In this document: positions 4,257-59,400 of the stretch, one piece after another | Position numbering within the stretch: the first letter of the stretch is position 1 | Layout: the number at the start of each line of letters is the position of its first letter | Virus record (IMG/VR): IMGVR_UViG_3300021354_000450 | Location: 64,001 to 128,000 of that record | DNA: 64,000 nt | Direction: 5' to 3' (one strand) | Source: a virus | Position numbers and translations under genes: made by a program | The notes under the pieces: model-generated | What the model was told of the DNA's origin: nothing | What the model saw: the letters and a program-made list of their open reading frames with translations, nothing else | Database searches by the model: none

Positions 4257-4892
4257 ATGTCAGAATCATTTGATTTTAATTTTACACAGAACCAGCTTGC
4301 ACAAATTATTACAAATAATCCGGTTATTGAACATTGGTTTGAAGCATTAAACACAATTCTTCCAGATTATGAAATTAATACAATTCCACGTGTTGCGGCA
4401 TTTTTAGCACAAACTGCACACGAAAGTGGTAATTATAAATTTTTAAAGGAAAATTTAAACTATAGAGCTGTTACATTAAGAAAAGTATTTCCAAAATACT
4501 TTCCAAACGATGCAATTGCAAATGAATATGCTCAAAAACCAGAAAAAATTGCTAACAAAGTTTATGCAAATAGAATGGGAAATGGTTCGGAAGAATCAGG
4601 TGACGGATATCGTTATTGTGGTCGAGGTCTGATCCAATTAACTGGAAAAAGCAACTATACTTGGTTTGCTGAAAGTTTAGAAATCACTCCAGAAGAAGTT
4701 GCTGAATATCTAAGCACTTTTGAAGGTGCTGTACAATCAGCTTGTTGGTTTTGGGAAACAAATAACTTAAATCAATTTGCAGACAAAAGAGATATTATTA
4801 TGTTAACAAAACGTATAAATGGAGGTACAATCGGTTTAGAAGATCGTATTAAACATTATGATCATGCAATTAAAGTTTTAAAAGGACAATAA
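4257..4892 (+). CDS. glycoside hydrolase family 19 endolysin
   Basis: AAFLAQTAHESG, ENLNY, YCGRGLIQLTGKSNY, TKRINGG are GH19 motifs. Confidence 0.93.
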   Translation: MSESFDFNFTQNQLAQIITNNPVIEHWFEALNTILPDYEINTIPRVAAFLAQTAHESGNYKFLKENLNYRAVTLRKVFPKYFPNDAIANEYAQKPEKIANKVYANRMGNGSEESGDGYRYCGRGLIQLTGKSNYTWFAESLEITPEEVAEYLSTFEGAVQSACWFWETNNLNQFADKRDIIMLTKRINGGTIGLEDRIKHYDHAIKVLKGQ

Positions 4893-4893
4893 A

Positions 4894-5373
4894 ATGTCTC
4901 AAATCTTTTGGATGTTAAGTTTACTACCAGATAACGTGTTGAATGTATCAATAAACATTGCTATCATATTAGGATTAATCTTAACATTTGCTTTATCTTT
5001 TATAAATTCTATATATATTGACTTATATAAACCGCCTTTACAACTTTTAGGAATTTTGTTGTTAATTGTAGGTATATTTTTTAAAGGGTATATCATATCC
5101 GAAATGGAATGGAAAGCAAAAATTACTGAAGAACAAGAAAAAGTTAGAATTTCTGAAGAAAAATCGAAAAAAGCAGTTGAAGATCTTGCTAACGAAATTG
5201 AAAGGAAAAAATCAGGTGTAAAAGAAGTACAAGTTGTAATTAAAGAACGAATTAAAACTGTTGAAAAACAAATTGATAAAGATTGCAACGTTGATTTTGA
5301 AGCAATTAGTATTATTAATGATGCGGCATTAAATCGTTTAGGATATATAAATCAAATAGAGGTTAAAAAATGA
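4894..5373 (+). CDS. inner-membrane spanin (Rz-like)
   Basis: N-terminal TM helices then a coiled-coil domain with a late Cys; follows the endolysin and overlaps a lipoprotein gene. Confidence 0.7.
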   Translation: MSQIFWMLSLLPDNVLNVSINIAIILGLILTFALSFINSIYIDLYKPPLQLLGILLLIVGIFFKGYIISEMEWKAKITEEQEKVRISEEKSKKAVEDLANEIERKKSGVKEVQVVIKERIKTVEKQIDKDCNVDFEAISIINDAALNRLGYINQIEVKK

Positions 5374-5645
5374 AACATTTATTGATTTTAATTTTTACAA
5401 TGTTTTTAGTAGGGTGTGGATCTTCTAAAACTGTTTCAGTTAAACGTAAATTTCCAGATGCACCTTCAAGTTTGAAAGTTACATGCCCTACTTTAAAAGA
5501 GATCGATTCAACCACATCTAAATTAAGCGATGTTATTTCTGTAGTTACTGAAAACTACGGAATGTATCAAGAATGTAAAATTAAAGTTGTTAGTTGGAAC
5601 GAATGGTATAATACCCAGAAAGACATATTTGAGAGTGTAAAATGA
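5370..5645 (+). CDS. outer-membrane spanin lipoprotein (Rz1-like)
   Basis: signal peptide with lipobox LVGC; Pro-containing periplasmic segment with two further Cys; ATGA overlap. Confidence 0.75.
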   Translation: MKHLLILIFTMFLVGCGSSKTVSVKRKFPDAPSSLKVTCPTLKEIDSTTSKLSDVISVVTENYGMYQECKIKVVSWNEWYNTQKDIFESVK

Positions 5646-6040
5646 AAAAAATATTAACAGCGTTAACAGTTGTTTTATTATCAGGATGTGCTGTTGTTGA
5701 TTCGTATCTAATGAAATATGATACAAATGAATATCGAATTATTTCTGAAATACGAGAAAATGCTAATCTTTATAAAGAAAATTGCAATGATTTTGAATTG
5801 AGCAGTATAAATTCAACAGCAATTGCAAATAAAACTCATTTTTTTGTTTTCTTTACAGAATATATTCCGCACAACGAACCTGTACAAAATGCATCAGTTG
5901 ATCTTAATAAAATTGCCCAAGGTTTGAAAGAACAATATTCAAAAGGCAAAGTAAGTCCGATGTTTTGCAAAATTAAATTTGATACAATAGAAAAATCTGC
6001 AGAAAGTATGCAGAAAATTATAGGAGATAAACCACGATGA
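5642..6040 (+). CDS. second lipoprotein of unknown function
   Basis: MKKILTALTVVLLSGC lipobox. Confidence 0.7.
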   Translation: MKKILTALTVVLLSGCAVVDSYLMKYDTNEYRIISEIRENANLYKENCNDFELSSINSTAIANKTHFFVFFTEYIPHNEPVQNASVDLNKIAQGLKEQYSKGKVSPMFCKIKFDTIEKSAESMQKIIGDKPR

Positions 6041-6294
6041 CTATTGAGTATAACCAAAGTTTGTTAGCAAGTATTAGCAGTTCAAATCCTGACATTAATG
6101 CAGCTAATGCACAAGTAAATGAATTATCTGAATTGTTAAAAACAGGTCAAATTAGTAAAGAAGAATATTCTGAACTTGTTTTAGATGTACAGCGTCAAGT
6201 TAACATTCAAGCAAACATGGCCGATTTAGCAGCTATGGAAACATTAAATACAGCTATTAACGGACTTATTACAATAGCTAAATTAATGCCGTAA
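6037..6294 (+). CDS. hypothetical helical protein
   Basis: ATGA-coupled ORF with GGAG SD. Confidence 0.7.
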   Translation: MTIEYNQSLLASISSSNPDINAANAQVNELSELLKTGQISKEEYSELVLDVQRQVNIQANMADLAAMETLNTAINGLITIAKLMP

Positions 6295-6305
6295 AGGAGA
6301 AAACT

Positions 6306-6896
6306 GTGGCATTAATTGATTCAGTTTTAAATATGGTTAATAAAAAACCAAAAGTTCTAAATGAAACAAGCCATCCAGTAGGATCACGAAGTGAACGTGA
6401 AGCCAAAATTAAAGATAAGGCAGGGTTAGTTATTAATGTATTTGCATTATTGCTTGCTGTTAATACTTTTTTCGGAAATGGATACAGTAGTTTAATTTTA
6501 AATAATACTATTAAAGCAAACGATACATGGGCATTTTATCAAGCTAAAGCACTTAAACAAACCATGGCTGAAAATGCTTTATATGATGCACAAAGAATTG
6601 GCGACAAAGTACGTATTGCAGATCTGTCAGAAAAGATCAACCGTTACGAGTTTGAACCAAGTGATGGTAAAAAAGCATTAATGGAAAAAGCTCAAAAGTT
6701 AGAATACGATCGTGATGTAGCAAAATCAAAAAGTCCTTGGACAAGTTATGCATCAACTGCATTTCAATTATCAATTGTATTACTATCAGCAAGTATTTTA
6801 GCAGTTAGTATGACGTTGTTTTGGGGCAGTTTTATAGTAGCAGGATTAGGAACATTATTAATGAGTCAAGGCATTTGTCTTTGGATTCCATTATAA
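6306..6896 (+). CDS. membrane protein, DUF4337-like
   Basis: TM - WAFYQAK - coiled coil - FQLSIVLLSASIL - TM architecture; GTG start with AGGAG SD. Confidence 0.65.
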   Translation: MALIDSVLNMVNKKPKVLNETSHPVGSRSEREAKIKDKAGLVINVFALLLAVNTFFGNGYSSLILNNTIKANDTWAFYQAKALKQTMAENALYDAQRIGDKVRIADLSEKINRYEFEPSDGKKALMEKAQKLEYDRDVAKSKSPWTSYASTAFQLSIVLLSASILAVSMTLFWGSFIVAGLGTLLMSQGICLWIPL

Positions 6897-11328: not shown

Positions 11329-11793
11329 ATGACACAATTAAGTAAAACATTTGAATTTTATAATCAATATTCAACAAACAATGCCCATACCACTCAGGCA
11401 ATCATTCAAATGCCACAGATGGTCAACGGCCGCACACCTCCTCCTGTTTTAACTTTTTTCAGTAATAAATTACCAGGTTCAGCTTATTACAAATTAGGTG
11501 AACGAATTCACACTGTAACGTATACAATTGAAGGTTCTTTTAGAGGAACATGTTCAATACAAGTAAGCAATAGCCCAAGTCCAATTGATCAAGATTGGGA
11601 AACACTTACATCAACACAAAAACAATATCTCGGTTTAGAAACAACGGGTGCTCCTGGAATAAGCGGGTTTGGTGGCGCAATAAGTCATCCTACTCAAACT
11701 GATATGTTTAATTTTACCGGTGATTATGCATGGATACGTGTGCAATTAGACATAAGTCGTGGAACATTGCAAGCCGCAAAGCTTAACTTTTAA
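11329..11793 (+). CDS. hypothetical beta-rich protein (likely virion-associated)
   Basis: ORF after late promoter; beta-strand pattern ending FTGDYAWIRV. Confidence 0.7.
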   Translation: MTQLSKTFEFYNQYSTNNAHTTQAIIQMPQMVNGRTPPPVLTFFSNKLPGSAYYKLGERIHTVTYTIEGSFRGTCSIQVSNSPSPIDQDWETLTSTQKQYLGLETTGAPGISGFGGAISHPTQTDMFNFTGDYAWIRVQLDISRGTLQAAKLNF

Positions 11794-11847: not shown

Positions 11848-12243
11848 ATGAAACTATTTGAATTTTTTGGAAATATTAACCACGATGTTGATCGTGACAA
11901 AGATCGAGATTCTCAGGCTTTAACAAAAGAAGAAGAACAAGAATTTAGTGATAACGTTTTTTGGTATATTATTGATGAAGATGATCTACATAAAAAATAC
12001 TTTTTGCCAATAGCTAAAGATCTAAAAAAGAAATATGATGATACAACTGATGATGATTCAGTCGATTGGAAAGTTTGGCTTCCGATAGTTAATGCAGGAT
12101 GTACAAAGTACTATAAAGATCATAAAATCGATAAACATCCCAAAGATGCATTCCAACAAAAGTTTCGTATGGAATTGTGTAAACGTTTAGAAGACCACTT
12201 TCATCAAGATATCGCAAAAGGCGAATATAATTTAGGCAATTAA
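11848..12243 (+). CDS. hypothetical protein with MKLFE N-terminus (putative processed head-internal protein)
   Basis: TAAATA at 11813-11818 upstream; LFE motif at residues 3-5. Confidence 0.7.
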   Translation: MKLFEFFGNINHDVDRDKDRDSQALTKEEEQEFSDNVFWYIIDEDDLHKKYFLPIAKDLKKKYDDTTDDDSVDWKVWLPIVNAGCTKYYKDHKIDKHPKDAFQQKFRMELCKRLEDHFHQDIAKGEYNLGN

Positions 12244-12244
12244 T

Positions 12245-15200
12245 ATGAAATTATTTGATTTAATCCACAAACCTGAGATTTTTTCTGAAACAATTGAACC
12301 AACGGATTTTAAAGACATACTTAAAGTATTTTTACCAATAGCAAAGACGATTATTAAATTAGATAAACTTCCAACTATTATACTTAAAAAAACTCTTTCT
12401 TATGAAGATCAACCAACAATGGGACGTTTTTATAACAAAGAAAACAAATTAGAACTCGCAATTGCAAATCGACAACCGGTTGATGCATTACGCACACTTG
12501 CACACGAACTTGTTCACGCAAAACAACATCAAGAACATAAAGATATCGATCCAACAACAGGTTCACCAGAAGAAAATGATGCAAATGTTGTTGCTGGTAT
12601 CGTAATGCGTGAGTTTAACAAACTTCATCCAGAATATTTAAAAGCACAACCTATAAGTGAAGGTGGAAATCTTTCAATTAACGGGCATGATGCAGAACAA
12701 ATAAATCTAAAAGTTACGCAAAGAGGATATATTGTTCCAATACTTAACAATTTATTACTTTCTATTAATAAATCATTTTCTCAACAATATCATGTTCCAT
12801 TATGGAGACCTGAACTACTTAAAAGTCAAAAGTTCTTAAGTGGTAGTTCATTACACTTTTTTAATGTAAAAGGTATATCAGATGAACAATTTGTTACTAA
12901 GAAACCTAAAGTAGGTGATATTGATACAATGGTTCCTAAAGAAAATGAAGCAGAACTTGAAGAATTCTTAAAATCTGTTCAAGGAAAACAAGTTGGACTT
13001 GCAACTTGTCTAGGATTTCAGCGTGGAAATGAACAGTTTAGCAGTTTATGGGAACTAGAAAACCCGCCAATCAAGGTTCAAATTGACCTTGAATTTGTTG
13101 AATTTGCAAACAATGAACCAACAGATTGGGCAAAATTTAGTCATTCAAGTTCTTGGGACGATTTACAAGCAGGAGTTAAAGGAGTATTCCATAAATTTCT
13201 AATTCAATCATTTGGAGTATTAAGTAAAAAAGAATTTATACTTCGAAAACTCGACGGACGAGGGGCAGCTCGTGTTGAAAAAGATTTTCCAAAGTCAGAT
13301 AGTATGCTATCTTTTGCAGTGAGCTCAAAAGAAGGCGGAGGATTACGTGCAAAATACGAACCGGTTCTTGATAAACAAGGTCTTCCATTGTTAATTGATG
13401 GGTTACAGGTAATGCGAGAATTACCTACATCAAATTATGATCACGATATTGATAAAATCTTTTTAACTTTATTTGGAGATCGTATCGGTCCTAAACAGGC
13501 AGCCGCACTTTCACAAGACTTTTGGTCGTTTACTGGTTTATTAAAAGTTATGAATCAAATTTTAAAACCTGAAGAAAAAGAACGAGTTGTTAAGAGTTTT
13601 ATTTCAAAACTTTTCAACATAGGCGCACAGTGTTTATATAAAGATGATCCTGATAGAGATTCAGTAGAAAAATCAGTTGCTGTAGATTTAATGCTCAAAA
13701 CATTACAAGTTTCTGCTCCGGATTATTTAGATGAGTTAAAACAGGATTATATTACCGATGTTAAAACTCCTAAAGTTAAAAAAACTAAAAAGGTAACTGA
13801 AGCTGATGCTCCAAATTATAAACGTCAAGGTATTCAACATATCTACAATCCAGGATCAACTGTTGAAATGAAGAACTTGGACTTTATTGATATGTGTAAA
13901 GAAATTGCTGATAATGGCGGTACATTAGATGGTATGGCAATTAACTTAAAAGCAGACGGTGCTGGGATTCGCTTTGGAAAAGATGAAGCAGGCCGCCCGT
14001 TCTTTATGACTTCAAAAGTTACTGAACCAAAATATGTAGATAATATCGGTGATTTTGAAAGATTTGGTAAAGAATCAGGTCAACCACCAGATCGTTTAGA
14101 ATTTACTAAAAAATACGATGCTGCTATGAGTTTGATCTTACATAGTAACTTTATTAAAGTATTACCACCTGATACAATTGTACAAGCAGAAATGATGTAT
14201 AATGATATGGCACAACAAACACCACAAGGATTAAAGTTTGTAAACATTCCATATGATCCTAAAAAATTAGGTAAATCAATGACACTTGTGCCGTTTATTT
14301 TTAAAAAATATAGCACTGGCGAGAATCTACCTGATGCAGATAAAATCAAAAAAATGCTGTTGTCAAAAAGCGATGCAAATATCAAAATGGTTAACAATCA
14401 ACTTGAACAAAAAGGTGTTAATGTTAGTAAGATAATTGCTCCTGTTGTAAACATGAAACCAGATCTTGTTGCTTCATTAACAGCTCGTACAAGAACTAAT
14501 CCACTTAAAGACCAAGCAATTGAAATTCTTACAAAAGCAAGAAAAGAACTTTCGGATACAATTATAAGCAGTCCAAATATTGTAGGGAAAGACCAATTAG
14601 GTAGCCACATCGAAGGATTGGTGTTTAATTTACCAAGTGGAAGACTTGCTAAAGTTACAAGTCAGTTAATGAAAGATACAATGGCTTCAAAAAAAGTGCA
14701 ACCTGCTCCAGCGAAAACAGATGGTAAGACTGCTGTTGTTGCAATCGGAAGTTTTGTTGGACATATTGGCCATGAACAATTATTTAACTACACAATTAAA
14801 AAAGCAAATCAACTAAATGCTGTTCCATATTTGTTTATTGGCAATGCAGTAGGTAAAGCTGATCCTATTCCGGTAAATGTAAAAGTTCAAACTTGGCATA
14901 AACTTTATCCTGAGTATGCAAATCATATTTCTGCTGTTACGCATGAAGGCGGAAACTTAATGCAAAAGATTAAACATGAATTAATCAATCCAATGCCAGG
15001 TCAACCACCTAAATATGATAATATCATTATTATGGTCGGTGAAGATCAAGCAAATATGCCAATTGCACAAGCTTTAATGAAAGCTGTTAACAAATTCCAA
15101 GGGTATGAACATGTTAAAGTAAGTTTAGAAGTTACTCCGCGTGGTACAGGAATAAGCTTTTCAAAATTACGTGATATTTTAAAAGATCCAAGTGCAAGTA

Positions 15201-15502
15201 CTGAACAACAATATGAAGTTTGGGCACAAGGATTTGATGAAAAGAAATTAGGTAAACCTTGGATTTTAAAATTAATGGAATTGACTAAACACGGAATGGG
15301 GATAACAAAACCTACTCCTGCTGTTACAACTCCTGATCCTATTGCTGAAGAAAATACTCGACTAGATTCTAAATGTTGGAAAGGTTATAAAAAACAAGGT
15401 ACTAAAATGAAAGGTGATACTCGTGTTAATAATTGTGTTAAAGTTGGCGAAGCATGGGAATCGGAAATTGGAAAATTAATCAGGTTGCTTGAAAACAAAT
15501 GA
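12245..15502 (+). CDS. multidomain polyprotein: HExxH zincin-like + Pol-beta-like nucleotidyltransferase + ATP-dependent ligase fold + HxGH cytidylyltransferase-like + CWxGY motif
   Basis: LAHELVH; GSS...GDIDT...QIDLE; KADG...QAE...EGLV...AKV; GHIGH...VGEDQ...ISFSKLR; CWKGYK...NNCVK. Confidence 0.7.
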   Translation: MKLFDLIHKPEIFSETIEPTDFKDILKVFLPIAKTIIKLDKLPTIILKKTLSYEDQPTMGRFYNKENKLELAIANRQPVDALRTLAHELVHAKQHQEHKDIDPTTGSPEENDANVVAGIVMREFNKLHPEYLKAQPISEGGNLSINGHDAEQINLKVTQRGYIVPILNNLLLSINKSFSQQYHVPLWRPELLKSQKFLSGSSLHFFNVKGISDEQFVTKKPKVGDIDTMVPKENEAELEEFLKSVQGKQVGLATCLGFQRGNEQFSSLWELENPPIKVQIDLEFVEFANNEPTDWAKFSHSSSWDDLQAGVKGVFHKFLIQSFGVLSKKEFILRKLDGRGAARVEKDFPKSDSMLSFAVSSKEGGGLRAKYEPVLDKQGLPLLIDGLQVMRELPTSNYDHDIDKIFLTLFGDRIGPKQAAALSQDFWSFTGLLKVMNQILKPEEKERVVKSFISKLFNIGAQCLYKDDPDRDSVEKSVAVDLMLKTLQVSAPDYLDELKQDYITDVKTPKVKKTKKVTEADAPNYKRQGIQHIYNPGSTVEMKNLDFIDMCKEIADNGGTLDGMAINLKADGAGIRFGKDEAGRPFFMTSKVTEPKYVDNIGDFERFGKESGQPPDRLEFTKKYDAAMSLILHSNFIKVLPPDTIVQAEMMYNDMAQQTPQGLKFVNIPYDPKKLGKSMTLVPFIFKKYSTGENLPDADKIKKMLLSKSDANIKMVNNQLEQKGVNVSKIIAPVVNMKPDLVASLTARTRTNPLKDQAIEILTKARKELSDTIISSPNIVGKDQLGSHIEGLVFNLPSGRLAKVTSQLMKDTMASKKVQPAPAKTDGKTAVVAIGSFVGHIGHEQLFNYTIKKANQLNAVPYLFIGNAVGKADPIPVNVKVQTWHKLYPEYANHISAVTHEGGNLMQKIKHELINPMPGQPPKYDNIIIMVGEDQANMPIAQALMKAVNKFQGYEHVKVSLEVTPRGTGISFSKLRDILKDPSASTEQQYEVWAQGFDEKKLGKPWILKLMELTKHGMGITKPTPAVTTPDPIAEENTRLDSKCWKGYKKQGTKMKGDTRVNNCVKVGEAWESEIGKLIRLLENK

Positions 15503-15816
15503 GACAGTATAATATAACAAGTGAACATATTCCTCAAGATAGTTCAGATGATGCGTACCTTGCTCCAGATGATCCTTTACAAGAATTAAAAATTGTTCAA
15601 TATCTTGCCGGATTAGGTGCAGAAGCACGTTTACAAGAGTATCGTGCAAAAAATGCACACAACAATGAAATAAATAAGGGAAGTAATGTTTCGTTAACTG
15701 GAAATGAAAAAGGTGAGTTAATGAAGAAAAACAATATTAAACCAGGTACTGATGAATGGTTTAAACTTTGGTTTAGTAGACCATATCTCACAAATGAAAA
15801 GCCTGTAGGAAAATAA
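15499..15816 (+). CDS. phage hypothetical protein
   Basis: ATGA-coupled ORF ending IKPGTDEWFKLWFSRPYLT. Confidence 0.75.
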   Translation: MRQYNITSEHIPQDSSDDAYLAPDDPLQELKIVQYLAGLGAEARLQEYRAKNAHNNEINKGSNVSLTGNEKGELMKKNNIKPGTDEWFKLWFSRPYLTNEKPVGK

Positions 15817-16182
15817 ATGAGAGCAAGAGAATTTATAGAAGAAAGCAAACTTCGTAAAAGTGCAGTTTCAAGTATACCCGGTGCTCAACAGTATCCTGAA
15901 TTAGATAATAGCAATCCTTATCATTCTTATAGATTTGGGGTAGCAATGGCAGGGGCTCCTGACTTCATGGCAGATAAAGACGGTCCAACTGGACAACATT
16001 TGGTTACAATTGGATACACAAGTGCATGTGATGAAATTACAAATGCGGCGTCAAAACATTTAGGTTTTAAATCAAAAAAATTAACACCTAAAGATAGTAC
16101 AGAAGTAGATACTACAGGTAAACATAGTCCGGTTTCAAATTGGTTGAAACCTACAAAAAAAGAGAAGAGTAAAAAGAAATGA
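15817..16182 (+). CDS. hypothetical protein with MRAREFIEE N-terminus (putative processed head protein)
   Basis: directly abutting ORF; IxE motif near the N-terminus. Confidence 0.75.
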   Translation: MRAREFIEESKLRKSAVSSIPGAQQYPELDNSNPYHSYRFGVAMAGAPDFMADKDGPTGQHLVTIGYTSACDEITNAASKHLGFKSKKLTPKDSTEVDTTGKHSPVSNWLKPTKKEKSKKK

Positions 16183-16967
16183 AAAAACCAAACGTTTATT
16201 TAGACATGGATGGCGTATTAGCAGACTTTTTTACAGAGTATGCAAAACTTGCCGGAGTTGAAAGTGGAAACTATAGAGAAATTCCACCAGCAAAAACAGA
16301 TCCTACATTAAACAAAATGATAGGAACTGATTTCTTTGCTAGATTACCAAAATGTCCAGCGGCTGATCAAGTTGTTGGTATGTCGGTTAAGTTATTTGGC
16401 AAATACTATATTTGTTCAAGTCCTTTACGAGGCGATCATGAAGGTTCAGAAAAATGGAAAAAAGTTTGGATTAAACAACACTTAAATCCACAACCTGCTG
16501 AAGTTATCATTACTCCAAACAAAGCAAAATATGCAAAACAACCAGATGGTACTCCTAACATCTTAATCGATGATAGAGGAAGTAACATCAGTGCTTGGGA
16601 AAATGCAGGTGGTATTGGTATTAAATATCAAGCAGATGAAGATAGTTTACAAGTAATTGTTGATGGATTTGCTCGTGCAAGAAAAATCCTTAAAGGTCAA
16701 GAAGAACACAAACCACAACAGTTAAAAAGTTTAGACCGTAGTTCTGGTAAACTTATTGCTAAAAGTGGTGACGAAGATGAACATCCTACTTCAGCTGCTG
16801 ATTTAACAGTTAAAGAATCTGCAAGTGCTGGTGCAAGTGGTTCAGGCGGAATTGCGTCAAATTCAGCTACAGGCGGTTATGGTAATGGTTTTGTAAATGG
16901 CGGGCCAGGTGCAGAATCAATTGCACAAAAAAAGAAAAAATCAAAACAAATTAAGAGGGTGTCATGA
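16179..16967 (+). CDS. HAD-superfamily 5'(3')-deoxyribonucleotidase-like protein with low-complexity C-terminal extension
   Basis: YLDMDGVLADF (motif I), CSSP, K, ILIDDRGSN (motif IV); tail VKE/SASAGASGSGG. Confidence 0.85.
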   Translation: MKKPNVYLDMDGVLADFFTEYAKLAGVESGNYREIPPAKTDPTLNKMIGTDFFARLPKCPAADQVVGMSVKLFGKYYICSSPLRGDHEGSEKWKKVWIKQHLNPQPAEVIITPNKAKYAKQPDGTPNILIDDRGSNISAWENAGGIGIKYQADEDSLQVIVDGFARARKILKGQEEHKPQQLKSLDRSSGKLIAKSGDEDEHPTSAADLTVKESASAGASGSGGIASNSATGGYGNGFVNGGPGAESIAQKKKKSKQIKRVS

Positions 16968-17701
16968 ACGAAGGTAAAAAAGCAAAAACTGAACAACCAG
17001 ATAATCGAAATTGGGTTGCAAAAAATGCAATAGCAACAACTAAAAGTGCTGCAGGTTATCAAAAAGATCGTAAAAAAGCCGATAAACGCGGTGAAACAAA
17101 ATACAAAGAAAAGTATACCGAAAGTAATGAATACTCTGACGAAGTAGGTATGGTTAAAAGCAATTTACACACAATTATTCGTATGTGTAAAGAACTCGAT
17201 GATCATATGATTAGTGATGAAAATTTACCAGAATGGGTTGAAGAAAAAGTTAGTCAAGCAAAAGCTATGATTGTTTCTGCAGGTGACTATATTATTAGTC
17301 AACACGAAATGGGAAATATTCAAAAAACAGATGAAGGATGGAAAGATGTTGCAAAAGGAGCCGGTCGAGGTTTGGCTGCTGCGGCAATTATCGGAGGTGC
17401 TTCTGGTATCGGAAGTCATTTAGATAAAACTCATCCAAGTCAATTTAAATCTAATAACACACGATATACAATTTCACATAATCCACAAGACGCACAAGGT
17501 CGTGATGCTCAAAAAACAATGTTAAATGGTAAACCATACCTAGTTTGGCATTGGAAAGGACAAGATTTTGCTTATGCATTACCAGTAAAAGAAGGATTTT
17601 GGACACACGATACATTAGCAGATCAATTATTTGAACACGAACGCACATACGAAGAAGTGTTAGAAAATAAACTCAACAAACAACTCAAAAAATATTCTTA
17701 A
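16964..17701 (+). CDS. modular hypothetical protein (putative processed head-internal protein with a hydrophobic helix)
   Basis: segments delimited by MNE/G, YTE/S, TDE/GWK, VKE/G; GLAAAAIIGGASGIG hydrophobic segment. Confidence 0.7.
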   Translation: MNEGKKAKTEQPDNRNWVAKNAIATTKSAAGYQKDRKKADKRGETKYKEKYTESNEYSDEVGMVKSNLHTIIRMCKELDDHMISDENLPEWVEEKVSQAKAMIVSAGDYIISQHEMGNIQKTDEGWKDVAKGAGRGLAAAAIIGGASGIGSHLDKTHPSQFKSNNTRYTISHNPQDAQGRDAQKTMLNGKPYLVWHWKGQDFAYALPVKEGFWTHDTLADQLFEHERTYEEVLENKLNKQLKKYS

Positions 17702-47438: not shown

Positions 47439-50400
47439 CTAATTTTTTGGTAACTTAGCCAATGCTTTAGCAATAAATTTTGCTTGCGGAGTAGTATTTT
47501 TAGCCAAAGTACTATTTGAATCATACCACGAACTTGCAAATCGTTTAATAACTTCAAGTTTTGCACCTTCGATGATTGTAACTGATGCGGTATTAAGTGT
47601 TAAAATTCCTGTTGAAGAAATATTAAAATCAGAAGGAACACTAATATCAGCTGTAGATGTTGAATCATAGGCAATTTCTAAATCATGTTTAACAGTTAAT
47701 AACCCTGGTTTTAATAATAATTTTCCTTGGTATCTTACTTCTACCTGATCAGTAAAATTTGCATCTGAGGTAAAAGTTATACCTGTTAACAAATACGAAG
47801 GCGTTAAAACCGAAGTTGAAGTTGTATATTTTTGTGTTTCTTCAGTTGACAAAATTGTCTGATCTGTTCCTTGATCAATAACTTCGTAACCTGCATAATA
47901 AATTTCAGCAGGTGCTGTTCCTAATGTACTTCTACGTAATTGGCTAAGAGTATTTCCTTGTTTAATAAAAAATTCAATCCGTTCTTTTTGAATCAACACA
48001 ATTCCTGGACGATTATGACTAGGATCTGGTTCAGTTAAAACACTTGCATCTTCAACTTCTATTGTTTGATCATTTAAAGAAAAATTTCGAACCAATACCG
48101 TTGAGTTTGATTGACTTAATCTCTTATAATGGGTTCTTCCTAAAATATCACGAAATAATCTGTAAGCAACTGTTGATTCTCGATCTGCAAAACTTGTGAT
48201 TAAAACATAATCTTGAGAATTTTGATAAAAACCATTTCTTATCGTAACGGTTCTGTTATCAGGTCCAATTGAATAATCTAAATTTACTGTTAACGGACTT
48301 CCGTTATATGTAACCCAGACATAAGATGCATCAATACACGAACGTTGCATAACATATTGGCTACTTTCACTTACATTAAATCTTTCTGTTCTAATAAAAT
48401 CAGGATCGTGATTTGTAAATGTTGTAACTACAATTGAAGTTCCAGTTGAAGCAGGAGTTGTTAAATTTAATTGGTTATCTTGAATCAAATACTCTTGCCC
48501 TTCTTTAACTACAACTGCAATACTGTCACTAATTGACAACACTCCAGGAAAAAATTCAATTTGATTTGTTTGTTCATTTAAATTCCATTCTCGTAATGCA
48601 GCAACTTCGATACCATTGATATAAACTTCAATTTGAGATTGATCAATTCTTCCTAATTTAAAATCAATCGACTTACAAATATCAAATGTTGTTTGCTCAT
48701 TCTCAACTTCGTAATAAGTTAAAACAGGAGGTTTCAATCTTTTTCCATTTTTTGTTACAAAAACTTGATTATGTAACGGTTTTGCATTTCCTGGAATTGG
48801 ATTTAAAGTAAAAATTGACCTATTACTTGACGGAACTGTAATAATTTGATCAGTAATTTCACTAAAAGATTTTGTTGTTTCTAAAAACAAATATACTTGT
48901 ATTGTGCCTGATCTTTTAACTGTTATTCTTGCAGAACCACGATAATTTGTAAATGAATATTCCGGAGGGCTTATACTAACTCCATTAACTGAAACAAAAA
49001 TACTACCAACTTCACTATATCTAACAAACGAAGTAAAAACAGTTTCAGATAACGACGAAATCGAAGTTAATGAATCTAACAATTTAACCGTTCCTATTTG
49101 CATAGATGTAATACTTAGCCAGCCAGTTATTGGTGTAACTGAATTAAAAGTAAGTGTGTTATTTTGATAGTTAATTGTATAATTGTTTGAAGTAACAATC
49201 TGATCATTTAATAATACAGATACAGATTTTTCAGTTGATGGACAAATTCCAAGATCAAATGTTCTTATTGTTCCATCTAGATAATATTTTTTATTAATAA
49301 TCAACGGAGAAGAACTTACAGGTTGTGAATATACACTAATTCCAAATGCTTCTTGTATTTGTCCAGGAACGCATTCTTCAGGAGCAAAACTGTTAATTGA
49401 ATTTAAAAATCCATCATCATTCATTCCGGTAATATGTCTTGTTGAAGACGATCCACCATCTAAAATAATTTCACTTGGTGAAAGACCTAACGCGGTAGTA
49501 TTCTCTAAATTTCCACCGTTAACAATTGCATCTAAACTATCTTGATCAGATGGAACAACAGTACCGTCACTTGTTGAATATCTTAATACTACCTGTGTCG
49601 AAGATGTTGTGAATGCAACCTTTGGAATTGTAATTGTTGATGTTGTGATGTTTGAATTAATTTCAGTAAATTCTGATTTTAATGTTGCTCTTGCATACGC
49701 ACGAGTAGTTACAGAACTTGAAGTATGATTTGGGTTTATTGATTCTAGAATTGTTATAACCGGAGCTTCAGTATATCCACTTCCTGGATTTACAATTTGA
49801 ATATCAACCAATCCATTTGTTATTGTTGCAGTAACTGTTGCATTAATTCCGTTAAGCGTATTTGGAGCAGAAACAAAAACAGTTGTATATTCTGCAACAT
49901 AACCCGATCCAGGAACAATCATTGTTACTGTAGAAATAGCACCAGTTCCTAATCCAATTAATGTTTTAACTATAGAAGTCGAATTTACTCCATCAATACG
50001 TTTTCCACTTGCACTAGAATCTAAATTACTTTTTAAATAAACATTTACTTCTGTTCCAGAAGAAATAATCGTCGGAACTATAAATGTCTGTGTTGATGTA
50101 GACGTTGTTTTATAAGAAGTGTATCCTTCTTCAAATCCAAAATTATCCCAAGGAGTTGTTGACCACGGAATGTTGTTTGCATTCCACCCACCTGATGAAT
50201 CAAAAGGTAATCCAGTTACCTGTAATCCAGAATATTCGATACCAGTCATTAATTGAGCAAGATCTTTACCTGGCATTCCATATGAAGGGTTATAATAATC
50301 TTCGATTCGACTTGCAGCATTATATAAATCTAAATTTTTAGGATAGGTAATTTCAAGTATATCACCTGCATCTGGAATAAAAGATAACTTTAACGATGCA

Positions 50401-53400
50401 AATAGTTTTGAATATTCAGTATTTGGTTGAGGATTGTATAATTCAGTTGAAAACACAATAGTAAAAGAATCAATCAATTGAAGAATACCATTTTTTGTAA
50501 ATGTTATTAATTCTTTTTTAGTAATAGGAGGCCAATCTAATTTATAAGAAGTATCTATTCCATCACTTATAAAACTCTGTGTAACATATTGTGTTCCAAT
50601 TTCACGCTGTTTAGTAATTCTATCAAATTTTAATCTAATATAATTAGATCTCACAGGGCAGTTTCCAAGTTGAGCATATGCTCTTGCTGAAATTAAACTT
50701 GTACTTCCTCCACCATTAATAATTACAGTTGGTGTTGCTGTATATCCTTGACCTGGATTCGTAACAATTATTTGACTAACTTTTCCTAGACTAATAAAAG
50801 CAACTGCTGTTGCTCCAAATCCAGTATCACCATATGCAGGAACAATAGTAATATCAGGAGTTGAAGTGTATCCGCTTCCGCCTGTTGCAAGAGAAATAGT
50901 TTCAACTTGATATGTAAAATTATTAAACCATGCTTTCCATGGATATTGTAACAACATGTTATTTTCAAATTCAACTTTTTCAAATTTTGCAGTTGCTTCA
51001 TTATAATACAATGGCATATCAAAATCAGTATTAAATGTATTTGTAAGTTCAGTTGTTGTATATTGTTCTGTAAATTTTCTAATTTTAGTATGATACGGTT
51101 TAGCTTCTTTTAAGAAATCTTCAAAATAAGAAACATTTTGAAGATTAAATGTTGAAACTTGATCTAAGCTACCGGCTTGATTAACAACACTAATAAATGT
51201 TGTTTTAAATGCCCAGTCTAAAAATTTCTGTTCGCTCATTGCATAACGAACTGCTTTAAAAAATAGTTGATTCCAATATATTTTACATTCATTTATAAAA
51301 ATGTCATTTTTTATTGCATTTAAAATAAATGAAATTTCTGTATCTGGTGATTGATCAAATTGACTTTGATCCCATCCAAAATTTTGATCCCATCCAAATA
51401 ATGACGCAGAAGAATTCCATAAAGAATCTAAGAAATAAATGGTTCCATTTTCAGAATATACAATATCCCAATAAGGATCAAATGATCCTTGACTTCCGTT
51501 TGTTTTACGTAAAATTAAATAACGACCATCTCCACCATTTTGGACTTTAACATAACTGCCTTCTTCAATTGTTTGAAGAACTTGTAATGCATAAGGTTCT
51601 GCAACTGAAGAAACAATATTCTGAAAAGGATCAAAGTCTTTTGCTTTCCAATCAACATATTTCCAATACAACGGAGTATTATACGATTGAGTACGTGGTT
51701 TGATCCATTTAGACTCAGAAGAATTCCATTCATAAACTGCCCATTTTCCTCCAGAATTAACATCTGTTTGAACTACAACAGTATATGGTCGAACAACTAA
51801 TTCAGTAGTTGAATCATAATTTTTTCCACCATTAATAATATCAACAGATGTAATTCTTCCAAACATATCAATGTTTGCATATAATTCTGCTCCCGTTCCG
51901 TTACCTAAAATTGTAATTGTTGGAGAAGTTTTATACCCAAATCCTTGATTTAACAAAGTATTATTAGAATTTCCAGTTGTTCTAACATTAACAATAGTTC
52001 CGTTTGAATCAATTTCTGCTTCGATATATGCAGTTACTAATGAGTTTGTTGATATTAATTCAAAATTGTAAATATCTTCAACAATTGTATCATACGAATC
52101 ACTTGCCGGAATTGATTCAATTTCATTAAGATTTGAAAAATTAACTTTTCCTGTTACTATTTCATTAGCTAAAACGAAGTTTGTAAATTCAATAATATTA
52201 CGTAATGCTTCTTTACGATCAACAAATAAACTTTGACGAGGTCTGACTTCAATTCCATATTTTAATTTATTTGGTAACGAAGGATCAGGTACCGCATTAC
52301 CAAGACTATCATGTCCTAATAAACTATCAATTAATTTTTTCTCTAATAACCAATTTGGTTTACTATTTGGATCATTTTCTTGTAATAATAACCACTCAGT
52401 ATGTCTATTAGCTGAATCAGTTATTGTATCAAACGAGATGTTTAAATTAATTTGTTCAGACGTAATTAATGGTTTTGTATTTGCAAGTATAAATGCCGAA
52501 GGGCTAATAACAACTAAAAACTTAGCACCTGTGCTTTTAGGATCTGCAATTTGTTGAGCAACTTCATATGCAGGTTTTTTACGATTTCTTACGTTAGCAG
52601 GAACTGTGGTTTTATTTTTAACCCAATAATAATACACGTTTGAAAATGAATTTGAAACATTATTATAAACTTGTTTAACTGAAATTATGTTGTTATCATA
52701 AAATTTAGGTTGACCGCTTATTCCTTGCGTAAGCCCATCTGCTGTATCTGCTAATTGACTCCATTCTGAAGGAAGATATTCAGTACGAACCCATTCATAC
52801 ACATCAATACTACTTCCTGGAAAGAGATTATTCCAATTATTTTTTCGATATTCAAGTTCACCTTGTTCTGACCAAACAAATTTAACCGTTGATAAATCCC
52901 ACCAAAGTTCTCCAACATGTTCATCAATCCAATTTGTATTTGGATCAATATTAACTCCAGTAATGCCTAAACTATAAATTGCCGGATCGTAATGTGTGAT
53001 GTATCGTAATTCTTCAGCCGCTGTTCCTAATATATTCCCTTTAATAGGATCAATAACATCGATATAATCTTTAATTTGTTCTGAATTTGAATCAATTGTT
53101 ATTGCACGTTTAATTGGTGAAATATCAACTAACGGAATTTGAGATCGATGAACTGCCCAAGAATTAATTAATTTATTAATTTTATTAAATTCAAAAATTT
53201 GACCAATTCCAAAATTAACTCCGTTATCAATTTGTGACGGAGCTCCGACATAAATTTTATCATCTAATGTAAGAACACTTGTTCCAAACATTGTATTTGA
53301 TGTTATTTTATCACTTGTTAATTCTTGAGCATAAATCCATTTTGTTGAATTTGTTCCAAGGCGGTTATAAACATGCGCAGAACCAGCATTCGTATATTTT

Positions 53401-56400
53401 GAGGAAAATCTAGTACTTCCACTATCAAATGTTGTTGTAAGTTTACGTGCAATTGACTCAGAATTATTAACATAATTTGATTCAAATCCTAATGTTGTTA
53501 TTGTTGACGTTGAAAATCTTTCAGTATAATTGTCAAAAGTCGGACGTTTTGATTTTGCTCCGCCAATTGATGTTATAACAAGAGTATCAGCTGAATCATT
53601 TAAAGAAATATCATAAGCAAATGTTGTAGTTGATGTAATTGATGATAACGGTAAACTAATACGTTGATTATGATTAAATTTTGTTCCGTTCCAAACAAAT
53701 GTATCAACAACACCTGTTTTAACTCCAAGCCCGGGATCAAATGCTATCGGACTTGCAACAATTAAAAATTGCCCATCCTGTGACATCTTAACTTTTGTTC
53801 CGAAAATATCACCAATTCCCATCGGAATTGATAGATCATTGCCGGTAATAATTGTCGGTGAAGTTTGAAGATTATTATATATGTAAACTGCACCTATTGA
53901 AGTTAATTCTGCTGAAGTATAACCTGGAGCAGAAACAGCAATTCTTGATAAGGAATTATTACCTGCAATATCATATCCAAACTTATCTGACAAGTCTTGT
54001 GGATGAGATAAAAGAAAATCTTGTGTTACAGTAATAGCAGATGAAGTAACGCCAACTGTAAACACATATACTTTACCAGGTGATGAAGTTTCAATTGCTG
54101 GAGCTCCAACAATTAATTTATTAGTCGATGTTGAATATGCAATACTCCATCCAAAATTTACATTTGAACTAAGAGTTGGTAGTGTTATTACAACAGAAGC
54201 ATCTAATAAATGAAAAGTACTTTTATTAATTAAAGAAAGTTTAACAACTCCTGTTTTAATAAATGCAGAACTTTCACCTGCTGGATTAACTTTATTTGTA
54301 TTAGGAATTAATGCTTTTACACGTGAAGTAAACGGTGCTCCTGCAATGATTAATCCAAAATTTGGGTCAAATGCAAGACTTTGTCCATATTTTGTTGTTT
54401 CGTACCCCGGTACTTCTGCATAATAACTAGCATATACATCATTAATTGTAAAATTATCATACATTTGAAGATTACCAAAACTATCAGTAACCATAACATA
54501 TACTCGACCATAACTATTTGATGTTAATGGAATATAATCCGGAGCAGATATAATTGTAATATTAGAACTTGCATGACTTGCAATTGAAGTTCCAAAATGT
54601 TGAGCAGTAATTGAAGACACTTCAGAAGAATATGCTGTTCCTATATAATTATTTGTTTTTTTATAAACTTCCCAATTTCCTGTGCCGTTATCATCAACCC
54701 AAATATTTTCTCCAAAATTCCATCGATCAATAAATGGAATGTTATCAATTTCATCAGTTGTTTTAATACGTGACGATTTAAAAACAGAAACTAATCCTAA
54801 TACAGGATTATCTAATGATGGCAACGAAGTTATTGTTGATAATACTACAAATTGATTATCATTTATTACTTCTTGAACAACATAACATTGATTAATCTCT
54901 GTTGCTATATTTGTAACACTAATTAATTCATTAGGTAACAATTGATGAGCATAATATGTTGTAAGTAAAATTGATTGACCTGGAATATTAATAGAAACTG
55001 CGCTAATAAATGTAGGAATATCTGTAACTCGAAGAACATCCCATTCGCCATTTTCTAAAAATCCTAACCAAATTGTATTTCCAATTTTAAGACTTGAATT
55101 ATTTGCAATATCTAATACACTATTCTTATTATAAGCAGTAGCTGTAATATCATCAAATCTAACATAACCTGCAACAGGCACTTTAAAGATAGTATCATCA
55201 TATACAGTTGTTTGAAAAATTGATGAAATATTAAAATCTTCAGAAGTAAGAATAAAATCAGATTGATCTTTATAATAAATCATTGTTTCTGAGTTAACAG
55301 GTTTTTCTTGAACAAACTCAACAATTTGTGGGTTTTCTAAAAATTTTGACGATTCTAAATTTATTTCTATTTCTTGAAATGTATTATATCCACCATAATA
55401 ACCGATACGGAATGCCCATTCTTCATTAAAATTAAGACTACTACGATATCTGTTAAGACTTGCTTTACCTAAATTTGTTAAAGATTGTTTGGTACCTTTT
55501 TCACGTATAAAACCTTGATAAAATTTATATTGTGCAATCGAATCACCAATAATATAGTTTAAATATGGACGAGGAGTATATCCAGTTAAATGTTGAGCCA
55601 TTGATTGTTGAGCAATATCAAAGTTATCAATGTCTAACGAATAAAAATCTTCAAACTGATTTATCTTATAATCAAAATTTGGTAAAAGTTGTGAAACAGG
55701 TTTTTTATCTAAAAATGTCCATTGAGTAATATCAAATGCTTCTGAACCAGAAATTGACTTATTTGCAGAATAATAATTTCCTGAAAAACGAACAACATCA
55801 CTGATACTGTAATCAACAAATTTTTTCCAATCACTAATTTTAGCTTGATCAAAAACAAAACCTGGACTAAAAAAATCACCATTCCAATTATCTGTAACAA
55901 ATCCTTTTAATTTAACTCTACGTTGACGATATCCTGTTTCTTTATCATATATAACATCATTGAACAATGTAAAGTTTTTAAAAACAATTGCATGTTCTTT
56001 TTGTGTAACATTAATTTTTGCAAAGAAAATTCCTTCTTGTGTATTAATTGTCGAAATTGAAAATTCACCATCTAATCGAACAATTGAAAAATTATGTTTT
56101 GAAAAAGGAAACCCGTCTGCTTTTAATAAACTATATTCATAAAAATTATTAACAATACTATCAACAATACCGATATTAGAACGGAAAGTTAATTTATTAG
56201 CAAATGGACTTATTGTAATAACTGCATCTTCGGCCCAATTTTGTGTTGTCCAATATAAAAATTCTTTTGAAGAAAAATTATAATTTAAAATTTGATCTAA
56301 TGTTGAATTGTATTCATCAAATACAAATCCTTTTGTTTCTAACCATTTTCCATAACCTAATATTAAATCATACACTTCTTGGTGAGTTTGATATTCTTTA

Positions 56401-59400
56401 CCATAAGGAACTATAGTTTCAACAGTTTCAAATGAAGTTCTACGCAATACTCCTATTCCACCTTTTGTTGGTAAAGAAGGAAGTCCTTGATAATAAGAAG
56501 ATGTAAAAATTGTTCCACTATTATGTTTTTGTTTTACTCTATAATATCTGTCAACATAAAAAACAATTTCATTTTCATTATAGGTTGTATTTGAATCCCA
56601 CAGAACATATGTTTCACTTTCTCCGCCGACTCTTTCGATTTGAGTCGAGTTACCTTCAAACGGTTTAAAAATTGTAAAGTATGGACAGTATCTATCATAT
56701 CCTCTAACAGTCCATCCTATTTTAGTTTTTTGAATAATAAATCCAGAAATTCCTAAACTTTGAATAGGATTACTTTTATTGTAAAAAATTTGATAATCTT
56801 CTGCAGGAATTAACGACCCGGGATAAGGACTTGACGGATCAACTGCATCAATAACAACAGATAATTTATCTTTACTTACAAATGACCCAAGTTTAACCAT
56901 TAATCTATAATCTAAATTTGCAAGATCATGTTTAAGTTCTGTTATATAATTTGAATTTTTAGCAGTACCTGTTTCAATAAGCATAACACTATAACCTGAT
57001 GCTAGAACCCGAGTTCCGTCATCTAATGTGTTATTAAACAAAACAACTTTTGAAGGATTTAAAAAAGATCCTTGGTATCTATATTCACCTGATATATTTT
57101 TTTCAAGTCGACTTGGATCAAACATTAATGCAGAATATGATGCAGGAGATGTTAGTGCTAATAGTAACTGACAAGTAAATGGCCACCAACTGCTTCGACG
57201 CCATGCAGTTTCTGCAGGTGCTTGATCACCAACTTTCCAATTTGAAGAAATTTGTTCACTTCTTAACAGAATAATACGATCTGGATCATCAACATTAATA
57301 ATCGGTGTAGTTGCTAACTTTAAATCAACTGGACTTATTAATTCTCCATATTCGTTTACAGGAATTATATTACTTAAACCAGGTCGAGCAAACATAGGAT
57401 TAATAATACCTGTATTTGCGTTTAGACCTTTTTCAAGATCATTCCACATTACAAGATTACCACTTGTATATGGTGCTTCACCATACGTAGTTTTCCACCA
57501 GCTAGGTTCTTCACTTAACCCAAGCATTTCCCACGGATGTGAATGAGGACGATCAGTATCATAAAAATACTTATAAACACTTCTCCAATAACCCGTTAAT
57601 GGATTTTTTGAAAGCGTGTCGATGCTTCCTGTATAATTGAATGTAAATGAATCTAATTCGTCAAATATCGAATTAGAAATATAATCAACCCCAAAATATC
57701 CTGCCCATTTTAGAAAATCAGCAGACAGAAGATTTGTAATTTCTATCTGAGAAAAATTATCAGTTCTAAATGCACTTGGCATAATTGTTAAAATATCTAA
57801 CAACTCTGAATTATATTCTGTTTTAATATTGTTATAAATTCGAGTTTCATATTCTAATAAAATAGCATCTCGGTAATCACCATATGTTAATGTTATACTT
57901 CCGTCATGCCCTTGAAGAACTTCACGTGGTTCACCAACAAACGTATCATCTAAATAAATCTGAGGTTTAAATTTTGGAAAAAGACCAAGTTTAGTCGGTG
58001 TAGGCGGAACAAAACTTCCATCTGTATTTGAAAAATCCAAAATTGTGATTATATCACCTTTTGTTAAAGAACTTATAATTCTAATGCTAGGATCATATTT
58101 TTCAACGATATAATCATATCCTTTTGTTAATAAAATATCATTTTTATAAACTAAAACTGATCGTTGACTTAAAATTGTATCATCAAATATTGTTGAAATA
58201 TTATAACGAACACTTTTAATATCATTAACTGTAAAAATTTTAGTTGTGCAATTGTTTCCAAAAGCCAACATATCTGAATTTTTATAGCTTGTAAAATCAT
58301 CTTTTGTAGAATTCATCGATATTAATGCAATATCTAATGATTGAGCTGGTGTAAAGTTTCCTTTTAAATTTGTTATGTTTCTTAATAAATTTGATTTAAA
58401 TTGATTATAATCAATTGCAACCTTTCGTATACTTGAAATAAGATTATCTGAAACTTCTCCACCTAAGAAATAATGAGCAAAACTTATCGGATTGCAATGA
58501 CTTACTAATCTTGAACCAAAAGAACTTACATCTGAAATATCTCTTAGATTACTTAACCCAGGAAAAACTCCATTAAATGTTTGAATAGAATCAACCATTG
58601 TTTTTACATGATCACTAATTTCAGTAAATGTAAATTCTTCAATTGATCCATTGAGTGGATTGTTGGTTAAATTAGTCGGTGGTTCATAAAATCCATTTGC
58701 ATTTGGTGTGTTATTAGTGTATAATTTTAAAAGAACCTTATCATTTTTTGAAAAAGTTGTTGTTGAAACAATAAAAGAACGGTTAACATTGTTTGTTTTA
58801 ATGTAATCAACATTATGAATTTGTTTAACATCATTAATAAAAACTTCAACTGTTAAATCTGAAACATATCCAGGTTCGTTAATTGAATTAATTTCAATAA
58901 ATGTTAAATCTTCAGTAAGAACTTGATATTGTAATATCGGAATTGCTTTGTCAACTGTTTTAGTCCAAACTGTTTTAAAAGTTTCTCCTGTTAACGAATT
59001 TATTTTTAAAAACCCGTTTGAAACATTTCTTACTTCGGTAGTATTGTTTACAAAATTTGTAAAAGAATCTATCATATAGAAATTCTTAAATAGATATTCA
59101 CCAACATTTGCAACATTTTTATATGCTAAATTAAATCCTAAAACAGAGTCATAAACTGTGCCAAGTTCATACCCGAACATTTTAGTTCCTGCAAATGAAC
59201 TATCATATATTGCCGTATCAGAAAATTTATTTCCACTACTATCGTATAATTCCCATAATGGTGCTTGATTTAATCCTGTTTTTTGTTGAGAAAAAATCCA
59301 AGTTGTTCCATCAAACCACCAACTAGTTCCTGCAAATTCAGTTCCTTGTTTAACTGATACTGCTTCAAACAATTTTGGTTCTGAATCAAATACTTCTTCT

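Follow-up and report, generated by a model that had tools for sequence, protein, structure and literature searches.

The window analysed here is a 64-kb stretch (bases 64001-128000) of the 141,321-bp IMG/VR virus contig IMGVR_UViG_3300021354_000450, which derives from an uncultured giant T4-like phage and is 40% complete according to CheckV; the G+C content of the window is about 33%. On its plus strand, an open reading frame (ORF) at 12245..15502 is open over 1085 amino acids and encodes a 125-kDa protein, here called P0001. In this protein a leader and a small HExxH domain are followed by a nucleotidyltransferase (NTase) of the Pol-beta superfamily, an RNA-ligase-like domain, an HxGH cytidylyltransferase-like domain and a small basic module, and candidate protease sites of the form hydrophobic-x-Glu stand at borders between them (Table 1). 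The reading that we somewhat favour, on the strength of sequence comparisons and structural models, is that P0001 is a polyprotein directed to the capsid of this giant T4-like phage and processed by the prohead protease, and that it makes up a nucleic-acid end-repair kit.

Table 1. Features of P0001 and of the partner genes in its operon (a slash marks the presumed point of cleavage)
Feature	Coordinates in window	Strand	Remarks
Partner gene, 131 aa	11848..12243	+	1-nt gap upstream of the P0001 gene; leader MKLFEFF...; no family match
Leader MKLFDLI... and small putative HExxH (zincin-like) metallopeptidase domain, aa 1-139	12245..12661	+	HELVH at aa 87-91 (nt 12503-12517)
Candidate site 1, I137-S-E139 / G140	12653..12664	+	Border before NTase domain
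Divergent Pol-beta-superfamily NTase, aa 140-519	12662..13801	+	phrog_19290 (function unknown) matches aa 167-512
Candidate site 2, V517-T-E519 / A520	13793..13804	+	NTase-ligase linker
ATP-dependent RNA-ligase-like covalent nucleotidyltransferase, aa 520-815	13802..14689	+	KADG 569-572, EGLV 790-793, K803
HxGH (HIGH-motif) cytidylyltransferase-like domain, aa 826-1025	14720..15319	+	HIGH at 840-843
Candidate site 3, I1033-A-E1035 / E1036	15341..15352	+
Small basic two-cysteine module CWKGYKKQGTKMKGDTRVNNCVK, aa 1044-1066	15374..15442	+
Candidate site 4, V1067-G-E1069 / A1070, and 16-residue C-terminal helix	15443..15499	+
Operon gene, 121 aa	15817..16182	+	Leader MRAREFIEE/S; leader score 9.3, rank 3 of 360 contig ORFs
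HAD-type 5'-nucleotidase-like operon gene	16179..16967	+	phrog_2643 E 8e-20; NT5C E 9e-4, below cut-off

The three-enzyme core and its homologs

A word-indexed search recovered at least 902 homologs of P0001 (as clusters at 90% identity), and 2663 representatives at E<=1e-3 were obtained when the search was exhaustive. The core of the protein comprises residues 137-1020, for which identity exceeds 50% in at least 902 metagenomic proteins and is 50-85% across the 120 best homologs. The HExxH domain, carried by about 24 of these 120, is an optional add-on that lies outside the conserved core. The same is true of the C-terminus, where homologs carry LysM, SLT, tail lysozyme, HD, ParB or amidoligase domains, or a second Pol-beta NTase.

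The first enzyme of the core contains the motifs GSS (200-202), GDID (224-227) and QIDLE (279-283), the first two and the aspartate of the third having been read from the sequence in the original prediction. Within them G200, S201, D225, D227, D281 and E283 are invariant among homologs; the conservation of catalytic residues was assessed across 38-42 of these. An AlphaFold (AF2) model of residues 135-519, made from 42 homologs, has a predicted local distance difference test score (pLDDT) of 95, and every top match to it in Foldseek and VIA is a Pol-beta-superfamily enzyme, with modest scores (Z <8). RNA 3'-tailing enzymes (TUT7 at Z 7.9, Trf4 and GLD-2) align with the model over about 100 residues, while the family X polymerases Pol beta, lambda and mu and TdT align over about 175 residues in VIA. 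At E<=1, no Pfam family had matches in two or more of the 42 NTase family members. An identification of the domain as RlaP was considered and found no support, PF10127 being absent from the 25 matched Pfam families that were listed out of 32.

The ligase-fold motifs KADG and EGLV and the lysine of motif V were likewise found in their predicted places. The residues K569, D571, G572, E649, F665, Y670, E790, G791 and K803, which represent motifs I, III, IIIa, IV and V, are invariant. The AlphaFold model of residues 520-825 has a pLDDT of 95.7 and is matched by Foldseek with a probability of 1.0 to Rnl3, T4 Rnl1, Naegleria Rnl (NgrRnl) and T4 Rnl2; DNA ligases appear only lower down in the list.

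The last enzyme appears to be an HxGH cytidylyltransferase-like domain, as had been proposed. The family phrog_3041, annotated as a cytidyltransferase, matches residues 808-981 (E 8.6e-11), the nearest Atlas clusters of residues 822-1030 are viral CTP_transf_like proteins (0.94), and G835, H840, G842, H843, G967, G969, S971 and R976 are invariant. Matches to RibF and FAD_syn are limited to the HxGH segment, and the Pfam matches lie below the curated cut-off. Indeed, no domain of P0001 has a match above the curated cut-off in Pfam or NCBIfam, and searches of PDB sequences with the whole protein and with domain profiles gave a sole, sub-threshold match, to the HxGH segment of RibF.

All three domains thus match the NTase, ligase and HxGH families to which they had been assigned. 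The original prediction had described them as three unrelated nucleotide-transfer chemistries; the family assignments hold, but the impression given by the enzymes is of a single coupled module, not of three independent weapons. Elsewhere, the domains of P0001 are found as separate genes or partial fusions. Cultured T4-like phages have them as neighbouring genes: in Xanthomonas phage BUDD the NTase gene is followed by one with a KADG motif and then by those for the ligase and the cytidylyltransferase, and the same order is found in the adjacent genes 048-051 of Stenotrophomonas phage Moby. Because the three enzymes are fused in P0001 and their gene order is kept in BUDD and Moby, they are likely to act in one process.

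In these two phages the extra gene, of 314-333 amino acids, lies between the NTase and ligase genes (4888-5889 in the BUDD locus L168, encoding USV40838, and 5908-6852 in the Moby locus L169, encoding Moby_049). With its KADG motif, USV40838 may be a second ligase-type enzyme. In Vibrio phage Va1 (L164, 75611-86648) the gene for the leaderless NTase homolog Va1_161 has two notable neighbours at a distance of less than 5 kb, an annotated CCA-adding tRNA nucleotidyltransferase and a 485-amino acid protein with a KTDG motif. Genes for 7-deazaguanine DNA modification occur near the homologs of CP220, Moby and BUDD; a link to them was considered and left as a loose neighbourhood effect.

The HExxH motif of the N-terminal domain is present as HELVH, as predicted, and is followed by EEND at residues 108-111. 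Matches of residues 1-139 to Pfam Peptidase_M78 and DUF6782 are weak (E about 0.01, below the cut-off). In the Atlas, the closest clusters consist of viral M78/IrrE-like proteins (0.94), the Pfam family being assigned to only 14-19% of their members. The domain recurs in other leader-bearing proteins, which end in ..QPVxE/G and a short basic tail.

Border sites, leader and C-terminal module

Four hydrophobic-x-Glu borders had been noted in P0001, and all four are present: ISE/G at residues 137-140, VTE/A at 517-520, IAE/E at 1033-1036 and VGE/A at 1067-1070. The first two are conserved across homologs. At site 1, the P3 residue is hydrophobic in all 168 homologs compared (Leu in 102, Ile in 41, Val in 21, Met in 3 and Phe in 1) and P1 is Glu in 166 of them, while P2 takes 15 residue types. 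The GGN that follows is invariant, P1' being its first Gly, and 16 homologs begin with MGGN, precisely where the mature protein is predicted to start. In the linker between NTase and ligase, whose length and sequence are otherwise variable, [LIVMF]xE, mostly followed by Ala, is found in 59 of 60 homologs. Both sites lie at low-pLDDT ends of the models.

Fixed P3 and P1 positions around a free P2, in linkers predicted to be disordered, appear to be the pattern of a protease site rather than of structure. The sites fit the motif of the T4 prohead protease gp21, (L/I)-x-E with a small residue following at the propeptide end. A general enrichment of [ILV]xE in P0001 was considered and rejected (11 observed against 15.3 expected). 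The proposal that (I/V)xE marks the domain borders therefore holds for the conservation of sites 1 and 2 but not for over-representation of the motif; it is by conservation across homologs, not by count, that the border sites exceed chance.

The two C-terminal sites are less uniform. A hydrophobic-x-Glu motif usually lies on the N-terminal side of (K)QRLDPK-CWKGY in homologs, and is looser than sites 1 and 2; after the CWKGY module, homologs repeatedly show [VI][GS]E and, behind it, a conserved amphipathic tail. The linker between the ligase and the HxGH domain is basic and contains no Glu site, so these two enzymes would remain one fragment.

The capsid-targeting sequence (CTS) of T4 is a textbook route by which small anti-restriction proteins and the packaged ADP-ribosyltransferase Alt are injected into the host. 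In homologs of P0001 that lack the HExxH domain, site 1 is preceded by 8-23 residues, usually 13-18 and most often 16, and the leaders of 150 homologs follow the pattern M[KLNR][LI]x[EDQ][LIF][FLI]. Some come very near to those of T4: MKSFKEFNQFILE/GGN and MRAREFITE/GGN may be compared with MKTYQEFIAE/A for the T4 internal proteins IPII and IPIII and with MKTFKEFTS..ITE/A for IPI, as given in the T4 record. In the T4 leader, residues 4 and 7 are responsible for targeting, whilst residues 8 and 10 direct processing (PMC9026906).

ORFs were scored with a position weight matrix of the homolog leader, with a threshold of >=9 in related loci. Four of the 360 ORFs in the 141-kb contig stand out, three of them in the operon of P0001 (those starting at 11848, 12245 and 15817). 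The 131-amino acid partner encoded immediately upstream of P0001 has the top score in the contig (14.0), and in many related loci the core gene is immediately preceded by a homolog of 121-132 amino acids with the same leader. The fourth leader-bearing gene (G000:C1:3959-5317) lies 60 kb before the window and encodes a protein of 452 amino acids with the canonical start MKIREVLSE/AKG.

Across 80 related loci, 107 of 7565 ORFs reached the threshold; core genes account for 45 of them, the remainder representing 52 distinct other genes, and almost all share one strand. At internal methionines in the same loci, which served as a control, one position of 9695 did so. The leader signature is thus specific to N-termini and common to unrelated proteins. 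Its cargo includes muralytic enzymes (PG_binding with SLT, and GH19), a P-loop kinase of the AAA_33/Zeta type and an NT5C HAD phosphatase.

The CWKGY..NCVK module described in the original prediction is also present, and it recurs well beyond P0001. It is found in 45 of the 120 best homologs as a nearly invariant stretch of roughly 25 residues, (K)QRLDPK-CWKGYKKQGTKMKGxxRVNNCV, and five PHROGs of unknown function match residues 1041-1074 of P0001. Many unrelated phage proteins contain it, either after a leader of 8-10 residues, internally, at the C-terminus or alone; among loci L002-L080, ORFs of 41-48 amino acids (for example in L052 and L057) consist of leader and module only. The module is not in Pfam, and no mention of it was found in the literature searched. 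It may act as a small basic internal peptide or as a DNA tether.

The head genes that such processing would call for are found in relatives. Among five long related contigs with a gene for the core, three also have one for a prohead protease of the gp21 type (Peptidase_S77). A match to the gp23-type capsid protein is present in four of five searched records, the contig of P0001 itself excepted; three of the matches span a complete gene, whereas the fourth is a short fragment. In relatives the two genes adjoin, and where the propeptide would be expected to end, a conserved L[AM]E/[ST]ATxGATS occurs in all three complete capsid proteins.

A homolog has also been detected in virions. The product of gene 1-56 of Campylobacter phage IBB_35 begins MKLSELMFILE/GGN and can be aligned over its full length with the NTase domain (28% identity, E 4e-34). 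Mass spectrometry of purified virions identified it among 38 proteins, with 17% coverage (PMC3322345, Table S2). Virion proteomes of other phages were of no further help, the CP21 results being given in a figure only and the Ps15 paper containing none.

Proposed packaging and choice of substrate

To judge from leader, sites and homologs, P0001 probably enters the capsid, is cut there and reaches the host together with the DNA, in support of the delivery that the original prediction had proposed. The N-terminal leader, resembling the T4 CTS, would load P0001 onto the prohead core. A prohead protease of the gp21 type would then cut at E139/G and E519/A, and probably at E1035/E and E1069/A. This would yield a 16-kDa HExxH peptidase fragment, a 43-kDa Pol-beta-type NTase with a free GGN end, a 57-kDa RNA-ligase/HxGH-transferase, a 3.9-kDa basic CWKGY peptide and the 16-residue tail, and the fragments would exit with the DNA at infection.

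The scheme has much in common with the T4 internal proteins. Like IPI, IPII, IPIII and Alt, the family has a short and similar N-terminal leader that ends in hydrophobic-x-Glu followed by Ala or Gly; as in T4, variable cargo stands behind a conserved leader, leader-bearing genes are clustered among non-structural genes, and relatives possess a gp21-type protease and a gp23-type capsid protein. T4 Alt loses seven N-terminal residues and is cut at its C-terminus too (PMC9026906), and C-terminal processing is possible for P0001. Unlike the T4 proteins, however, which are small and basic or single enzymes, P0001 is a 125-kDa multi-enzyme polyprotein with sites between its domains. Its family differs further in having a leader of usually 13-18 residues rather than 10 and an extra basic CWKGY module.

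Several observations weigh against packaging or against the proposed function. The leader of P0001 itself is followed by no standard site before residue 137, only by a weak FSE/T at residues 12-15. The homologs in the cultured phages BUDD, Moby and Va1 are leaderless (MGGN...), and therefore the enzymes can work without a leader. The gene setting is one of replication and chaperone functions, with a DnaJ gene, a peptide deformylase gene and a gene for a ClpB-like ATPase upstream, and the HAD nucleotidase and a family B DNA polymerase downstream. The canonical T4 late promoter TATAAATA was not found upstream of the operon, where there are TAAATA-type elements only. Neither gp21 nor gp23 was found in the 141-kb contig of P0001, which is a 40% complete fragment. 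The virion list of IBB_35 includes a QueC/ExsB-like enzyme (PMC3322345), so some of its entries may be contaminants. As for function, the NTase has no detectable match to RlaP (PF10127), and its resemblance to family X polymerases in Foldseek and VIA is compatible with a DNA substrate.

A multifunctional repair enzyme that works in the cytoplasm and is never packaged, in the manner of T4 Pnkp/Rnl1 with RlaP, would agree with the replication and chaperone neighbours, with the leaderless separate-gene versions, with the lack of an overall [ILV]xE enrichment and with a possible contamination of the IBB_35 proteome; leader and sites would then be structural or regulatory. We regard this as doubtful, since conserved P3 and P1 with a free P2 in disordered linkers is the pattern of a protease site, the leader is N-terminal-specific and stands on unrelated proteins that include muralytic enzymes, and a homolog was detected in virions. 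The gene setting argues less strongly than it might, as the T4 ip genes likewise lie among non-structural genes.

If P0001 is packaged as proposed, the Pol-beta-type enzyme would extend or restore 3'-OH ends and the ligase would seal 5'-phosphate/3'-OH breaks, the most likely substrate being RNA (tRNA) cut by host defence nucleases. The fused HxGH enzyme could serve in cofactor synthesis or in substrate handling. A precedent is provided by RlaP, an RNA-ligase-associated Pol-beta NTase that prepares damaged RNA for ligation by adding one or two nucleotides at the 3' end (PMC12776372, PMC7824862). As in the modules of RlaP (PF10127) and RNA ligase (Burroughs and Aravind, as cited in PMC7824862; Carruthers et al., PMC12776372), a Pol-beta NTase is either fused to an RNA ligase or encoded beside it, and the logic would be the same: 3' nucleotides are restored and the break is then sealed. 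The kinase, phosphatase and HD partners found in relatives appear to fit such RNA end-healing. Unlike the RlaP systems, P0001 contains an NTase that is not detectably RlaP, an HxGH transferase fused to the ligase, and signals for capsid targeting and cleavage.

The kit might instead be directed at DNA, with a Pol X-like gap-filler and a nick-sealing ligase mending the phage genome during or just after ejection, and an HxGH enzyme as a possible source of a nucleotide cofactor. Such a role does not conflict with packaging, and a packaged enzyme would adjoin DNA. Pol beta, lambda and mu are the most numerous Foldseek matches of the NTase model (with a probability of up to 0.99), and the VIA alignment to family X polymerases extends over about 175 residues; all of the structural scores, however, are modest (Z below 8), and no 8-kDa lyase domain was recognised. 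PgVPolX and the PolX and ligase of African swine fever virus (ASFV) offer a precedent in base-excision repair. PgVPolX in particular (PMC5537341) resembles P0001 in that a virus has joined a Pol-beta-like enzyme and a ligase into a compact repair enzyme, but its ligase is of the NAD-dependent DNA type and its role is in DNA base-excision repair, whereas that of P0001 resembles ATP-dependent RNA ligases; moreover, the HxGH domain and protease sites are features of P0001 and not of PgVPolX. The best matches of the ligase model are RNA ligases, motif V (K803) leads directly through a short basic linker to the HxGH domain with no oligonucleotide/oligosaccharide-binding (OB) domain, although no dedicated OB-fold search of that region was made, and the P-loop kinase, HAD phosphatase and HD partners fit the healing of RNA ends. 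On these grounds a DNA substrate seems unlikely.

Less probable still is a role in small-nucleotide chemistry, such as the production of signal nucleotides, NAD/FAD-like cofactors or CDP-alcohols, or the attachment of nucleotides to host proteins. CD-NTases, OAS and protein or antibiotic nucleoside monophosphate (NMP) transferases do appear among the weaker matches of the NTase model, and HxGH enzymes usually make dinucleotide cofactors or CDP-alcohols, but the ligase-fold domain retains all polynucleotide-ligase motifs and matches RNA ligases, and its fixed pairing with the NTase mirrors the RlaP-ligase systems.

Polyvalent proteins (Iyer et al. 2017, PMC5512222), as characterised in the main text of that survey, offer another point of comparison, since they combine unrelated enzyme domains in one polypeptide that is predicted to enter the host with the DNA, and have a zincin-like HExxH domain, to which that of P0001 may correspond, and variable add-ons (ParB, SLT/lysozyme, HD and NTase), as in the family of P0001. 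Unlike these, P0001 has an invariant core of three enzymes at >50% identity rather than free shuffling of domains, and its processing would apparently be by a prohead protease. That the HExxH peptidase should itself cut the polyprotein, as suggested by the zincin-like hub domain proposed as a processor in the survey (PMC5512222) and by the overlap of the C-terminal add-ons (ParB, SLT, HD, Pol-beta NTase and amidoligase) with the polyvalent repertoire, is very improbable and was rejected as the main route, because both sites are kept even though the domain is missing from about 96 of the 120 best homologs, and the sites fit the gp21 motif of a protease that is present in relatives. In the same part of the survey, Pol-beta NTases are reported only in proteins of conjugative elements, and 2H domains of the polyvalent type were never observed alongside RNA ligases; targeted term searches of its main text did not find the architecture of P0001 (PMC5512222). 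Similar searches of all the compared sources returned no description of T4-style CTS/gp21 processing combined with an RlaP-ligase-like payload in an architecture reminiscent of polyvalent proteins.

What distinguishes P0001 among the systems compared is that targeting signals of the T4 kind stand on a large and strongly conserved set of enzymes, belonging to a family that is unnamed in sequence databases. If the packaging reading is true, phages pre-load nucleic-acid repair chemistry in the virion, which would constitute a new class of injected counter-defence and would provide a function for a new Pol-beta NTase family (phrog_19290) and for a very widespread small basic module. The reading predicts new N-termini at G140 and A520 of P0001; for CP220 and IBB_35, Campylobacter phages that can be grown in culture, the predicted N-terminus is Gly12. 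The leader could double as a packaging tag for the engineering of phages outside E. coli.

A broader and more tentative proposal is that leader, hydrophobic-x-Glu sites and CWKGY module form a general grammar of protein delivery in a large uncultured T4-like clade, possibly loading a full RNA heal-and-seal toolkit of NTase, ligase, kinase and phosphatase partners and HxGH enzyme. Repair of tRNA might then proceed from the moment of DNA entry, before phage gene expression.

Operon and neighbouring genes

The operon extends from 11848 to 17701, and its genes are tightly coupled, with stops and starts that abut or overlap. In the HAD-type gene, the C-terminal tail is preceded by a VKE/S site and the copy of one relative (L133) bears a leader. 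The tail runs ..LTVKE/SASAGASGSGGIASN..GNGFVNGGPG. In relatives, a tail of this type is found as a separate small leader-bearing ORF (for example L154, 15710-15913), and it is similar to the stretch that follows the presumed cut site in the capsid protein of relatives (LAE/SATAGATSAGNVAT; L171).

Words resembling late promoters are depleted across the window. The canonical TATAAATA occurs once against 12 expected, TTAAATA 26 times against 54 and CTAAATA 10 times against 19. Two of the few late-promoter-like copies lie 20-36 nt 5' of the starts at 11329 and 11848.

No near-identical DNA was found among cultured phages. On the minus strand, the region 47439-60908 holds a single ORF of 4489 amino acids, followed by several of 576-997 amino acids.

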